This document shows positions 14,901-20,900 of a DNA stretch of 64,000 bases, piece by piece. Source of the DNA: Escherichia coli O157:H7 (GTDB taxonomy: Bacteria > Pseudomonadota > Gammaproteobacteria > Enterobacterales > Enterobacteriaceae); NCBI RefSeq assembly GCF_013167455.1, contig NZ_CP038328.1. One strand, 5' to 3'. The position numbers were made by a program. How positions within the stretch are numbered: the first letter of the stretch is position 1; each line of letters starts with the position of its first letter.

Positions 14901-17900
14901 TATCACCACGCGGGAGGAATTAACCGAGGCCAGTAATGAACTGTTCTCTTTGATTGCCAGCGGTGTGATTAAGGTCGATGTCGCCGAGCAGCAGAAATAT
15001 CCGCTGAAGGATGCGCAGCGTGCGCATGAGATTCTGGAAAGCCGCGCGACGCAAGGTTCCAGCCTGTTGATTCCATAAAAGAAATAGGGCTTCCACCTGG
15101 GAAGCCCTTTCTTTTTATAGTTCGGCTGTATGTAGGGTACAGCACGATGAATCTGTTAGAGGCGCAATAGTGACAGATTTGATTATCAATTCCTATTTTG
15201 TTCTAAGGATAAAACCTTAGGTTGTGATCATCCGCACAATCCCTTAGTAACGCCAGCGGTCATAACGCTGATATTTCGGCACTTTTGGTGCTTTAATCGC
15301 CTTAATAACCCACACCACCGCAATCGCCAGGAGTAACCACGGCAGCAACTTAATCATCAATGCCAGCATACCGCCGAGGAACATAATGGCCGTCGCCACA
15401 ACCAGCGCGGCGATAATGCCCAGCAACGAAACGCCGGTGACCATCAACATGACAAAAAAGCCAATCACAAAAAGTAGTTCCAGCATGATGCTCTCCCAAA
15501 TATGAAATCTCTTGCAGGCATTACAAGAATCATGCCAAAAATAATCTATTGATTTAACAGCAAAACGCCCCGCGACGGTGCGCAGGGCGTGGTGAATTTG
15601 ACTACTTTTTGGTGAAAAGTTAACGCTTATCCGCCACCAGTTTGAGCGCGTGTTCCAGCACGTTAATGTCTGCACCCGCTTTATGGGCATTTTCACTTAA
15701 ATAACGCCGCCACTGCCGCGCGCCAGGAATACCCTGGAACAAGCCCAACATATGCCGGGTAATATGGCCAAGATACGTCCCCTGGCTGAGTTCACGCTCA
15801 ATGTACGGATACATGGCGCGCACTACCGCCACCGGATCGGCATCGGTATCCGAGGAACCAAAGATCTCTCGGTCTACCGCCGCCAGAATACCCGGATTCT
15901 GATACGCTTCGCGCCCGACCATCACGCCATCCATATGTTGCAAATGCGCTTTAGCCTCTTCCAGCGACTTGATACCACCGTTAATCGACATCGTCAGATG
16001 CGGAAAGTCACGCTTCAGTTGATACACACGCGGATAATCGAGCGGCGGGATTTCACGGTTTTCTTTCGGGCTTAACCCCGAAAGCCAGGCTTTACGTGCG
16101 TGGATGATGAACATCTCACACTCGCCTTTGCCGGAAACGGTGTTGATGAAATCGCAGAGAAATTCATAGCTGTCCTGGTCATCGATGCCAATACGCGTTT
16201 TCACCGTCACCGGAATCGACACCACATCGCGCATCGCTTTCACGCAGTCGGCAACCAGCTGCGCATTACCCATCAGACACGCACCAAACATGCCGTTCTG
16301 CACCCGGTCAGACGGGCAGCCGACATTCAGGTTGATCTCATCATATCCACGCGCTTCTGCCAGCTTCGCACACTGCGCCAGCGCCGCCGGATCGCTACCG
16401 CCGAGTTGCAACGCTACCGGATGTTCTTCTTCACTGTACGCCAGGTAATCACCTTTACCGTGAATAATCGCCCCTGTAGTCACCATTTCGGTATACAGCA
16501 ACGTATTGCGGGAAAGCAGACGCAAGAAATAGCGGCAATGTCTGTCCGTCCAGTCGAGCATGGGAGCAATGCTAAACCGAGAATTCCAGTAAACACCAGT
16601 TTTTTCAGGCATCACGCTGGTTTGATTAATTTTTAGTGTTTCATGATTATCGTGCATTTTTGAACATTTCAGGCTATTTTTCTCGCGTTAGGTTCCCGCA
16701 CAGGTTCCCACGTTTTATGGGAACCCGAAATAACGAGGTCGTGTAATGGCGTACTATAACATAGAGAAACGACTAAAATCCGATGGCACACCACGCTATC
16801 GCTGTAATGTGATTATCAAAGAAAAAGGTGTTATCACTTACAGGGAAAGCAAAACATTCCCTAAACATGCTCATGCCAAAACATGGGGCACACAGAAAGT
16901 GATGGAATTAGATCTATATGGCATTCCATCATCAAATGCAGTTGACGGACTTACAGTCCGTGACTTACTACACAAATATTTAAATGACCCAAATGCCGGA
17001 GGTAAAGCAGGCCGTACTAAAAGATATGTGCTGGAACTGCTTATGGATAGTGACATCTCCGCGATCAAACTATCTGAACTGACAGAAAATGACGTAATTG
17101 AACATTGCAGGCTAAGAAACAACGCTGGTGCAGGTCCAGCTACAGTTAGCCACGATGTTAGTTATCTTGGCAGTGTTCTGGATGCTGCCAAACCTGTATA
17201 TGGAATTAATTACACATCAAACCCAGCGAAAAGCGCTCGCCCATATCTACTTAAACTTGGTTTGATTGGTAAATCAAACCGTCGTAATCGTAGACCAGCA
17301 TCTGATGAACTGGACATGCTCATTGAAGGCCTTCAACAACGATCTACTCATAAATGCTCAAAAATTCCGTTCGTTGATATCCTCAAATTTTCTGTGTGGT
17401 CCTGTATGCGGATCGGAGAAGTATGCCGGTTACGATGGGAAGATCTCGACCAGGAACAAAAATCTATACTCGTAAGAGACAGGAAAGATCCACGCAAAAA
17501 GGAAGGCAACCACATGAAAGTAGCCTTGCTTGGGGAAGCCTGGGATATCGTCCAACGACAGCCCAAAAAATCGGAATTCATTTTTCCATATAACAGCACT
17601 TCTGTTACTGCAGGATTTCAGAGGGTAAGAAGCAAATTAGGTATTAAAGATCTGCGATACCATGATTTGCGTAGAGAAGGGGCAAGTCGCTTATTTGAGG
17701 CTGGTTTTAGTATTGAGGAAGTCGCTCAGGTTACAGGGCATCGTTCATTAAACGTGCTATGGCAGGTATATACCGAACTGTATCCGAAATCTTTACATAA
17801 TCGTTTTGAAGAGCTCCAAAGGAGCAGAAATAAGACCTCTTGACACTGTTTATCCATACAGTTAAAAATAATACTGTATACAAACACAGTATAGAGGGAC

Positions 17901-20900
17901 TTTTATGCGTATTGAGATCTGCATAGCCAAAGAAAAAATGACTAAAATGCCAAACGGTGCTGTGGATGCGTTAAAGGAAGAATTAACCCGACGCATCAGT
18001 AAGCGTTATGACGATGTAGAGGTGATCGTAAAAGCCACCAGCAACGATGGCCTTTCTGTTACGCGCACCGCCGATAAAGATTCAGCTAAAACTTTTGTTC
18101 AGGAAACTCTGAAAGATACCTGGGAGTCTGCTGACGAGTGGTTTGTTCACTAATTAACACGTAAAATCGGTAACGGCTGGAAATCATTCAATACTCGCAC
18201 TATCGAAAGTTCGCCAGCCAGCCGTAGCACGTTCTTGCATACGACGTGCCGCGGATCCTATTATTCTAGTATGAAATCCCTAACCGATTTCAAATTCTCC
18301 AGACTGCTCAGATTCTCTTTTATCCCACGCTGGCGCTGATAAATCTCGTCATTGCAATCGACCTGCGCTATCGCTGCCGCAGTTCTTCCAGTTTCTGCAT
18401 CGATAACTCCATCTTCTGAGCAATAAACCTCACCTATGCAATATTTTATGTCAATTATTTCAATTGCATTAATATCTTGAATGGATTACATAGAGTTAAT
18501 GTATCCAGTACTCCCTATTCTCTTGCATATAATACATGTTGCAACTTACATCTCAGCGCTATGAAAAAACACCACCTCTCTCTTTATGAAATTCTGGATT
18601 TACCAAGCGCTAATTTATCATTTCAATCTACCTTTAAGCATTGCATTTATCTCCCTACGAGGTCATACTTTAGGAAGTTAAATATGAATGATAATATACC
18701 TACAGCGCGAAATCACAAACAATCGACTTGTATTACAGAAAAAAACATGCCTATCTTTTTAAACTTCACAGCAGGCAGTATCTTACCTGAGAATGAGCTA
18801 GCATCTTTACGTTATATTGTGCAGCAAAATCAAAATGATACTGTAATCATAAAAGAACGTTATAAAATGGATATCCGTTATATCGAATCAGTCAATGGTT
18901 TTACAGTAAATCCTGTATGCAGTAATCATTTCTCCATATTTATGGCGAGACAAAACACTATTGCTCGCAACCTGGAACAGCAGATCAACAACGGACGAAG
19001 TTTTGCACAAATATCTCAGGATTTTATGCTTCAATTATCTTCAAATATAGGATGGAAAAAAGGGGCCGAAAACGCCCTTAAAAATAAAATCCATTCTCAT
19101 TCATTTGTTGTAAATCCTGATGAATTCTCTTGCGACACACAATTTCTTAAGTGCCCAATAACATTATGCGTTCCAGAAAAAGGGGTTTTTGTCAAGAACG
19201 CACTGAACTCCAACATATGCACTCTTTATGATAAGTCTGCGTTCATGAATCTCACAAGAGAACATCTACCCCACCCTCTCAGCAGGGAAAAGATAGTAAA
19301 AGAAATGATTATTGAAAGGAATATGTGTTATTTTGACACCATAAGTCAGCATTTCATAATTATGGATGCAGACCAACAGAAACAGCATTGTAAATAAAAT
19401 GTAATAATTACATACTATTAGTGATTCTCATGCATCGTAAGCGGCTCGCCAGAACCGTATTGATATTTACTGAGCGCTCAGATCAACTTTCCATGGCAAC
19501 AGATCGCGTACCCGGTTTGCCGGCCAGTCCTGGATATGCTCCCGCCGACAATATTAATGGCCAGGAAATGTTTAAAACAATGATTCTGTTTCCTAACCAT
19601 CAAGTGTATATGCTGGCTCAATTACTCAATATCTATGGGTTGAGTTCTACCCAAAGTGGCTCTGTAGTCGCTTCTTCTTACAGTATGTTCAGGTGTTGCA
19701 GGCACAGTTGTGGAGCGTAGATGCGTTGTTGGTTTACCATGCTCTGGTACATAAAAAACGCCAGTGCCATGGTAACCTGATATAGAAACGTTAATTCCGC
19801 GACGTTCAAACTCGGCATAGACGTGTTCTGCTAAAGACCTCTTTTGACCAAATAATGCCCTGGCCAACCAGCCGTTATTCATATTTGCGGATTTTTCTAT
19901 TTCATCAGGAGAGAAGTCTTTGTTTTTTATTATGTTGGCTGAGTTACAGGATGTTAATCTGATATCATCTATTTCATGAAGATTATGTTGAACAATGCGG
20001 TCGACAATATCTGACGGTGATAAAAATTCATCTCCGCACTTAAGAAGAGGTAGACCAGCAGAACCATGCCCAGACAGATAAATTTTGTTGTATTTTCCTG
20101 GTGTTAAATCATCTGGCAGGATGGTTTTCATCTCTGTCGCTGTAATACTTATAGCTGCAGCAGCAACAACATCGCTATTACTTGATTGTAGATGGCTTTT
20201 ATTTGCTCCAGGATATGTAAACTCCATTTTCCTTTTATCAAAATCTTGTTTTGTAGCATCATTCAGGAATAATAAATCATACGGTTTTTTCCCGTTGTGA
20301 CTCTTGAAACATTTTGGCCAAGAATATTAAGAGTATAGTCATTAACGGATTTCATTCCTAAAAAAACAAGTAATCCTTCTTTCTCTTGCGCTTTTTCGAT
20401 TGTTCTCCCTGCTAAAGTTATTGGGATGGATTGAGATTGTTTTGTCGGAACTGATACGCTGGCGCTAATAGGTAGTAGGGTTCTTATGCTAAACATACAA
20501 CCTCTTTCTTAATTTTCGAACCTGTTTAGGATTCTGTGTAAATTCAAAATAAACCTGTCTGAACATTCCTAACAAACATCCACCGGACATGACAACAAAA
20601 ACCGGAGCCGGACTCCGGTTTTTGTGAAGCTGTCGGCTATTTCATTCCGCCAATATTTTCCCACGTCCCGTCAGCACGCAGGATTTGCAGCGGTCTTACC
20701 ACGCACTGTATCTGCTTTTTATCCGCATCCAGTATCACCACCTGTGTGATTACCCTGTCCTGCTCCGGGATAATGCCATTCTCATCTGACTCCAGAATGT
20801 CTGCCGGTCCCAGTCGCAGCTGTGCTGTAAGTAACTCCCCGTGTTCACGGTCATCATGCTTTCCGCAACCACACAGACGCTGCATAAGTTTTTTTAGTAT

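Follow-up and report, generated by a model that had tools for sequence, protein, structure and literature searches.

A DinI-like accessory cassette with two putative LexA operators at the integrase end of a dusA-sited prophage of Escherichia coli O157:H7

The cassette and its parts

Next to the integrase gene of a lambdoid prophage in Escherichia coli O157:H7 lies a short cassette built around an intact dinI-like gene. The stretch of DNA that we analysed as a whole, hereafter the window, comprises 64,000 nucleotides (nt) of contig NZ_CP038328.1 (assembly GCF_013167455.1), and the prophage in it is integrated at the 5' end of dusA. We consider it likely, with good confidence, that the cassette is a self-contained accessory unit, a "moron", which an inducible prophage carries at its integrase end; that it is made up of a sigma-70 promoter, two LexA operators, a ribosome-binding site, an 82-amino-acid (aa) DinI paralogue and a structured 3' untranslated region (UTR); and that it is controlled by the SOS response of the host. 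Its parts, in window coordinates, are the following:

17840-17845, plus strand: −35 hexamer TTGACA of the predicted dinI promoter, from reading the sequence and from a promoter scan; left boundary of the cassette
17846-17861 (20-mer 17844-17863), unstranded: putative LexA operator 1 (box 1), CTGTTTATCCATACAG, a CTGT-N8-ACAG match of 21.5 bits
17863-17869, plus strand: predicted −10 region TAAAAAT, read as TAAAAA with a 17-nt spacer or as AAAAAT with 18 nt
17874-17889 (20-mer 17872-17891), unstranded: putative LexA operator 2 (box 2), CTGTATACAAACACAG, a CTGT-N8-ACAG match of 22.4 bits
17894-17899, plus strand: Shine-Dalgarno sequence GAGGGA, read directly, with the ATG 5 nt further on
17905-18153, plus strand: dinI-like gene, 82 aa, intact, an open reading frame (ORF) from ATG; RefSeq "DinI-like family protein" WP_001217539.1
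18154-18262, plus strand: conserved 3' UTR of 109 nt with two predicted hairpins, at about 18169-18223 and 18222-18254; right boundary of the cassette

The predicted promoter with its boxes lies 16 nt upstream of the ORF. The promoter scan returned TTGACA, an 18-nt spacer and AAAAAT, with 10 of 12 matches; the reading with a 17-nt spacer gives TAAAAA. The latter is the one annotated in the Shiga toxin 1 (Stx1) phage VT1-Sakai (AP000400), where the −10 end of the "putative promoter" is the counterpart of the TAAAAAT region. Box 1 occupies the entire 17-nt spacer between the −35 and −10 elements, its 16-mer beginning one base past TTGACA, and box 2 lies over the predicted transcription start, which we infer at about 17875-17878. 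An earlier note on this DNA had described the boxes as overlapping a TTGACA promoter. Its location of the promoter stands; its wording calls for a small correction, as box 1 fills the spacer and only its 20-mer covers the last 2 nt of TTGACA. Both putative operators are placed so as to occlude the promoter, which is itself a prediction.

The window has three occurrences of the motif CTGT-N8-ACAG, where 0.62 would be expected from shuffled sequence; only 1 of 100 shuffles reached a count of three. Two of the three occurrences are the dinI pair, 28 bp apart centre to centre; the coordinates and motifs of the earlier note are correct. For scoring, we used a symmetrised 20-mer LexA matrix made from an uncurated set of 26 E. 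coli operators from the literature, so that all its scores are approximate. This matrix ranks box 2 first (22.4 bits) and box 1 second (21.5 bits) in the window; among 50 shuffled windows, the highest score was 19.1 bits, and none of the 50 reached 21.5. Both boxes also outscore the host operator between uvrA and ssb (20.5 bits), though that site belonged to the training set. Box 2 is moreover the sole site in the window with at most three mismatches to the 20-mer LexA consensus TACTGTATATATATACAGTA, and the shuffles yielded none.

The uvrA-ssb intergenic operator, TACTGTATATTCATTCAGGT at 4360-4379, served as the yardstick for the matrix. Other candidate LexA sites were rejected. Another site in the prophage, TGCTGGATAAACATCCACTT at 50264-50283, is fourth-best with 17.1 bits, which is within the range of the shuffles (maximum 19.1); it ends in CAC, not CAG, and falls within an ORF of 237 aa (PHROG 1450, function unknown). 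The third CTGT-N8-ACAG match, at 57931-57946, falls inside a 385-aa ORF of the Rha/Ant type and scores only 6.4 bits with the LexA matrix.

The gene directly downstream encodes a DinI homologue, as had been proposed. The 82-aa protein matches the Pfam family DinI (PF06183) with an E-value of 1.5e-19 over the whole model (positions 1-63 of 63), PHROG 189 ("RecA filament binding protein DinI") with 4.4e-31, and the E. coli DinI structures PDB 1GHH/7YWA over its full length (residues 1-81) with 7.9e-13. In the cryo-electron microscopy structure of RecA with DinI, the contact residues of DinI are L13, L21, W71, W77 and F78 (hydrophobic pocket) and E24, E69 and D76 (acidic patch) (PMC9926225). In the alignment with E. 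coli DinI, these correspond, in the same order, to M15, L23, W74, W80 and F81 and to E26, D72 and E79 of the prophage protein; five of the eight are identical, and the remaining three are conservative replacements. The dN/dS ratio against diverged relatives is 0.08-0.21, so purifying selection acts on the protein. With the NCBIfam equivalog model for DinI (NF007893), the prophage protein reaches 72.5 bits, below the cut-off of 111 bits, and K-12 DinI reaches 174.6; the prophage protein is therefore a paralogue, "DinI-like", and not the orthologue of host dinI.

Conservation and spread of the cassette

The two boxes stand at the same positions in all seven diverged copies of the 82-aa lineage, and the −10 region is invariant in the seven aligned copies. 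In the copy of PhiR12_1, whose gene differs from that in the window at 52% of synonymous sites, the CTGT/ACAG cores of the boxes are unchanged (0 of 16 bases), as are the box spacers (0 of 16), with one change in the 13 bases of the −35 and −10 elements and one in the 13-nt leader. In the copy of P-EibC, with a synonymous-site difference of 59%, the cores are again unchanged (0 of 16), as are the −35 and −10 elements (0 of 13), with 4 of 16 changes in the box spacers and 8 of 13 in the leader. Cores that are kept while synonymous sites diverge form the pattern expected of functional operators. This pattern and the two high-scoring operators on the promoter bear out, at the level of sequence, the SOS control that the earlier note had predicted. 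In K-12 dinI, Gifsy-2, PHB10 and two Klebsiella phages, there is only one box, which precedes the start codon by 34-39 nt; the double operator is thus a feature of the 82-aa lineage.

It could be argued that the two boxes are non-functional look-alikes or relics, the gene being either silent or constitutive. The −10 element is weak, and half-sites have partly decayed in the most distant copies: the right half of box 1 is CAA (ACAA) in BP-4795 and also CAA in JLK-2012, where box 2 has TTGT. In some copies, the boxes have been lost entirely. However, two near-consensus operators 28 bp apart on the promoter of an SOS-family gene are far beyond chance, and their cores are much better conserved than synonymous sites. 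In addition, the homologous genes of Gifsy-2 (PMC3121763) and phage 186 are experimentally LexA-controlled, the SOS box of VT1-Sakai being only a putative annotation. We regard decayed or accidental boxes as very unlikely, and continue with the reading of two functional operators.

Several of the copies in O157 are degenerate. Those of Sakai ECs_2218 and Stx2_499 have no LexA box, their 5' end and promoter having been replaced. ECs_2218 is interrupted by IS629, Stx2_499 has IS629 alongside, and the copies in Stx2a phages are truncated.

The left end of the cassette is sharp. In phage cdtI, VT1-Sakai, PhiR12_1, P-EibC and BP-4795, homology with the window sets in precisely with the −35 hexamer, and of the 10 bases before it 5-8 differ from the window. 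In the window, the stop codon of the integrase gene (TGA, 17841-17843) is formed by the middle bases of this same hexamer. On the right, homology with cdtI and VT1-Sakai ends at about 18260, past the conserved 3' UTR. Outside these ends, the neighbours are attL/yehV in VT1-Sakai and a different integrase and cdt toxin genes (orf31/cdtC) in cdtI. In P-EibC the cassette lies beside eaaC, which encodes an autotransporter, in JLK-2012 beside espV, an effector gene, and in BP-4795 beside a putative avirulence gene; in Stx2_499, nleC adjoins the truncated, boxless copy. The carriers include Stx1, Stx2c, cdtI, Eib and other phages, with differing integrases, att sites and cargo. The cassette is a moron in this sense, the same unit recurring with sharp boundaries in differing neighbourhoods. 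The possibility that the boxes regulate int was rejected, because they travel with dinI and not with the integrase.

Copies that span at least 80% of the cassette occur in about a quarter of complete E. coli genomes (1408 of 5426). There are five matching places in RM8385 and up to nine per genome in Shiga-toxin-producing E. coli (STEC), counts that include one chromosomal remnant upstream of ykgJ.

This distribution bears on the question of whom the cassette serves. It is possible that it serves the host, as a case of lysogenic conversion: SOS-timed extra DinI, made from several copies, would stabilise RecA filaments for repair and restrain UmuD processing and mutagenesis, with no meaningful effect on CI cleavage or phage yield. 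Indeed, the cassette is found among cargo genes (nleG7, an EspS/Ibe-like effector gene, cdt, eib, nleC, espV) at prophage ends, outside the regulatory region; its own promoter would allow expression without prophage induction; and the counts just given amount to several copies per STEC genome. E. coli DinI at moderate levels mainly affects UmuD cleavage, and this, too, speaks for a service to the host. So does the finding that deletions of dinI in Gifsy prophages left induction unchanged (PMC3121763). However, the host already owns a dinI gene, and the many decayed copies argue against strong selection by the host. We keep this explanation as a tentative alternative that deserves attention, without holding it to be probable.

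Prophage context and the 3' untranslated region

That the cassette belongs to a prophage, as the earlier note had assumed, is confirmed by its relatives. Over the 64-kb stretch, identity with chromosomes of O103, O145 and O121 STEC is 100%, and the prophage is, over the tested stretch, 100% identical to the induced phage Lys8385Vzw from O103:H11 and also to the dusA-sited prophages of O103, O145 and O121 STEC. The other genes that matter here are the following, where T3SS stands for type III secretion system:

3672-4208, minus strand: ssb (NCBIfam)
4463-7285, plus strand: uvrA (NCBIfam)
15620-16657, minus strand: dusA, context, adjoining the integrase gene
16746-17843, plus strand: prophage tyrosine integrase, 365 aa; the ORF ends within the dinI −35 hexamer
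18747-19397, plus strand: nleG7, a T3SS effector gene, 594 nt 3' of dinI and co-directional with it
58951-59604, plus strand: CI-type repressor, with HTH_3 (E-value 1.8e-15) and Peptidase_S24 (E-value 5e-25) in Pfam; PHROG 4, transcriptional repressor

The CI-type protein is the presumed RecA-dependent, self-cleaving switch of the prophage that a DinI protein could influence. The integrase gene reads away from dusA and into the prophage, and the integrase side holds tail and cargo genes, not early-left genes. The orientation of nleG7 is opposite to that of the late operon. Between nleG7 and the tail-fibre genes lies a frameshifted EspS/Ibe-like T3SS effector gene (19622-20497, minus strand), a RefSeq pseudogene whose 200-aa ORF matches PHROG 6583 with an E-value of 4e-144. 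The 385-aa protein mentioned above (56889-58049, minus strand) is encoded between a cII-like gene and a replication gene and has Rha/Ant-type anti-repressor-like domains (PHROG 821, 518, 373, 63).

With the neighbourhood in hand, a further explanation can be weighed. The dinI homologues of the Gifsy prophages head LexA-repressed operons that have a small antirepressor as their payload, with irsA behind it (Lemire, Figueroa-Bossi & Bossi 2011, PMC3121763). If the cassette were an induction module of this type, its true payload would be a small antirepressor encoded just 3' of dinI, which would inactivate the prophage repressor. The architecture is experimentally established in Gifsy-1, -2 and -3 (PMC3121763), and the order dinI, small ORF and then a 200-aa DUF1367/irsA-like gene is seen in Gifsy-2, PHB10 and the Klebsiella phage phi12.4. 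However, in the 594 nt that separate dinI from nleG7, no ORF on the same strand exceeds 34 aa, and the one of that length, with a TTG start, begins in the last bases of the cassette and continues into non-conserved sequence; no irsA/DUF1367 gene is present among the annotated genes; and the cassette has its place at the integrase end and not downstream of replication genes. Moreover, a self-cleaving S24 repressor needs no antirepressor, and the proteins belong to different DinI sub-lineages, one of 82 aa with two boxes, the other of 74-77 aa with one box at −39. We rejected the Gifsy-type antirepressor operon on two grounds, namely that neither a small antirepressor ORF nor irsA follows dinI and that the repressor is a cleavable S24 protein, and we consider it extremely unlikely. 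Our preferred reading remains that of a cassette whose product is the DinI-like protein.

The conserved 3' UTR has a consensus fold of 26 pairs with one compensatory change (C-G to U-A), derived from four distinct sequences only, and its single-sequence fold z-score is −1.9. The second hairpin (18222-18254) has a conserved GC-rich stem and is a possible weak terminator. A U-run follows it in cdtI, VT1-Sakai and K-12; this copy is without one, so the terminator scan of the UTR came back empty. The scan also found no canonical terminator between dinI and nleG7. An 87-nt "capsid protein" pseudogene fragment in RefSeq (18150-18236, minus strand), wholly within the conserved UTR, appears to be a spurious or propagated annotation.

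In 5242 of the 5426 complete E. coli genomes, the end of dinI together with the UTR (18096-18252) has an unannotated counterpart, 84-86% identical, which lies between ecpE and ykgJ; in K-12, it is at about 304183-304494 of NC_000913.3. In the alignment, this counterpart consists of a decayed dinI remnant with a 22-bp deletion, then the UTR, then the start codon of ykgJ. Between K-12 and the window, the dinI remnant is 62% identical, the UTR 85% and the core of the UTR 93%. In VT1-Sakai, the cassette continues into a frameshifted ykgJ homologue. The simplest reading suggested by these alignments is an ancestral dinI-ykgJ unit, and the UTR core upstream of ykgJ is possibly a functional ykgJ leader or promoter.

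Considering this conservation, the LexA promoter might also drive what lies downstream of the gene. Either the 3' UTR would be released as a regulatory RNA, or transcription would read through into nleG7 and thereby couple nleG7 to DNA damage. For the former, there is the precedent of DinR, a small RNA (sRNA) that is derived from the 3' UTR of the Klebsiella dinI mRNA and represses ftsZ (PMC10907235). The UTR here is conserved, with its two hairpins and one compensatory change, and it is kept upstream of ykgJ in almost every E. coli (85%, core 93%), while the adjoining dinI remnant is down to 62%; for the latter, nleG7 is on the same strand as dinI, with no canonical terminator in between. However, the Rfam scan of the window region and of the region upstream of K-12 ykgJ gave no match at threshold, and the UTR pairs with the leader of E. 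coli ftsZ at −36.2 kcal/mol, where shuffles average −33.3 and 26% of them do as well, which is chance level. The fold z-score is only −1.9, the structure rests on four distinct sequences, and an untranslated RNA of about 590 nt would invite Rho termination. A DinR-like sRNA is unsupported by these searches, and a downstream role of either kind seems to us quite unlikely.

One observation from the literature was set aside here. NleG7' is up about 3-4 log2 under sulfamethoxazole-trimethoprim (SMX-TM) in O157 (PMC5931665). We rejected this as support for read-through, because in Sakai Sp12 the nleG7' pseudogene and the dinI remnant, a copy that is 5'-replaced, cut by IS629 and boxless, are on opposite strands; the induction of NleG7' is therefore irrelevant here. 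Below threshold, the Rfam scan gave a partial match to CssrB, a Shigella chromosomal sRNA, with 24 bits at 18223-18296 (minus strand) and 22 at the equivalent place in K-12, against a gathering score of 76. This match is probably due to chance, though it recurs at homologous places.

Proposed mechanism and comparison with known systems

Taken together, the operators, their conservation and the homology of the product indicate that the cassette is very probably wired to the host SOS response. We propose the following course of events. In the undamaged lysogen, two LexA dimers, one on the spacer and one on the start site, would keep the gene off, as the sequence and its conservation suggest. After DNA damage, RecA filaments would form and LexA would cleave itself; by analogy with the Gifsy dinI operon and 186 tum, the promoter would open without prophage induction, and the DinI-like protein would be made. 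This protein would then bind in the groove of the RecA filament. The S24-type repressor and DinI share that groove (PMC9926225). As the level of the protein rises, it may stabilise the filaments and compete with slowly cleaved substrates, namely UmuD and the S24-type CI of the prophage, and this step is the least certain of all. From two strong operators, one would also predict that repression is tighter, and release later, than with the one weaker box that host dinI has.

A modulation of RecA, and hence of cI autocleavage, of which the earlier note had spoken, is plausible on these grounds. The net effect on the induction of this phage would be small and modulatory; that is, the protein would act as a brake or timer, not as a trigger. 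Given the result of the Gifsy dinI deletions, a modest modulatory effect at most is to be expected.

Several points weigh against this picture and have to be set beside it. First, the −10 element is weak, with 4 of 6 matches, the start site is a prediction only, and the LexA matrix behind the operator scores is an approximate one. Second, since the protein reaches 72.5 bits and the equivalog cut-off is 111, its activity may differ from that of host DinI. Third, non-polar deletions of the dinI homologues in Gifsy-1 and in Gifsy-3 did not significantly alter induction (PMC3121763), so the role of the cassette in the phage's own switch may be nil. Fourth, some copies have lost their operators or are truncated, and the cassette is thus dispensable. 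Finally, the papers that we searched contained no LexA-binding, transcript or protein data for the STEC copies of the cassette; in the available part of the supplementary table of PMC5931665, host dinI (ECs1439) was the only one found among dinI genes.

A bolder version of the proposal can be formulated. The double operator would make the DinI-like protein a late, high-threshold SOS product, and the multiple copies in poly-lysogenic STEC would set how long RecA filaments cleave CI-type repressors. The cassettes would thereby act as a governor of prophage induction, that of Stx phages included, and of UmuD-dependent mutagenesis, and the 3' UTR would have a second function at the level of RNA. 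We think this version unlikely. A phage DinI that limits the induction of Stx phages is an idea that has been proposed for O145:H25 phages (PMC8456039).

The finding by itself matters little. If, however, DinI paralogues alter the speed at which RecA drives the cleavage of CI-type repressors, this would have a bearing on the induction of Shiga-toxin phages by antibiotics, which is clinically relevant. The practical value of the analysis is an exact map of the promoter, the two operators, the gene and the 3' UTR, from which reporters or deletions can be designed; public annotation marks only one of the two operators.

Several known systems resemble the cassette in part. With the Klebsiella dinI-DinR system (PMC10907235), it shares a LexA-controlled dinI mRNA with a structured 3' UTR, although the UTR here has no sequence relationship to DinR. 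With E. coli dinI (b1061), it shares the fold family, the length, the RecA-contact residues and a LexA-boxed promoter; the two differ in that the identity is 49% and that the host gene has a single box at −39. The tum gene of phage 186 is likewise a LexA-controlled phage gene with a DinI-like domain. According to the phage 186 record, p95 is SOS-dependent, a LexA site lies before tum, and a truncated DinI-like product "modulates SOS induction of 186 prophage". Tum is, however, a fusion of 146 aa, combining an antirepressor with a DinI-like part, in a P2-like phage with a non-cleavable CI and one annotated LexA site.

The likeness to Gifsy-1, -2 and -3 consists in a prophage dinI homologue directly behind a LexA box. 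In Gifsy-2, mitomycin C leads to a build-up of the DinI protein, and the prophage's mitomycin-C-dependent activation requires the LexA box (PMC3121763). The Gifsy genes have one box at −39 and encode a DinI of 77 aa, 42% identical, and an antirepressor gene and irsA follow, whereas here there are two boxes, a product of 82 aa and neither of those genes. The Gifsy locus, moreover, is downstream of the replication genes, in prophages whose repressors are not cleaved; here, the cassette is at the integrase end, and the repressor is of the S24 type.

The Stx1 phage VT1-Sakai (Sp15, AP000400) carries the same cassette at H0001; its promoter (TTGACA/TAAAAA), the positions of its two operators and its 3' UTR are the same as here. 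Its protein is 96% identical to that in the window, and identity across VT1-Sakai H0001, phage cdtI, Lys8385Vzw and Stx1a/Stx2c phages is 96-100%. The AP000400 record labels a "putative promoter of H0001 and H0002" and a "putative SOS box", which is box 2; box 1 is unmarked. The VT1-Sakai boxes are 29 bp apart centre to centre, against 28 here, and they are weaker (15.8 and 17.9 bits). In that phage, attL/yehV borders the cassette, which continues into a frameshifted ykgJ-like ORF, whereas here a dusA-type integrase precedes it and nleG7 follows. Prophage accessory cassettes of this kind are already known and annotated in public records. What the present analysis adds is only that, as judged from the aligned copies, the upstream operator, box 1, is conserved as well and is specific to the lineage.

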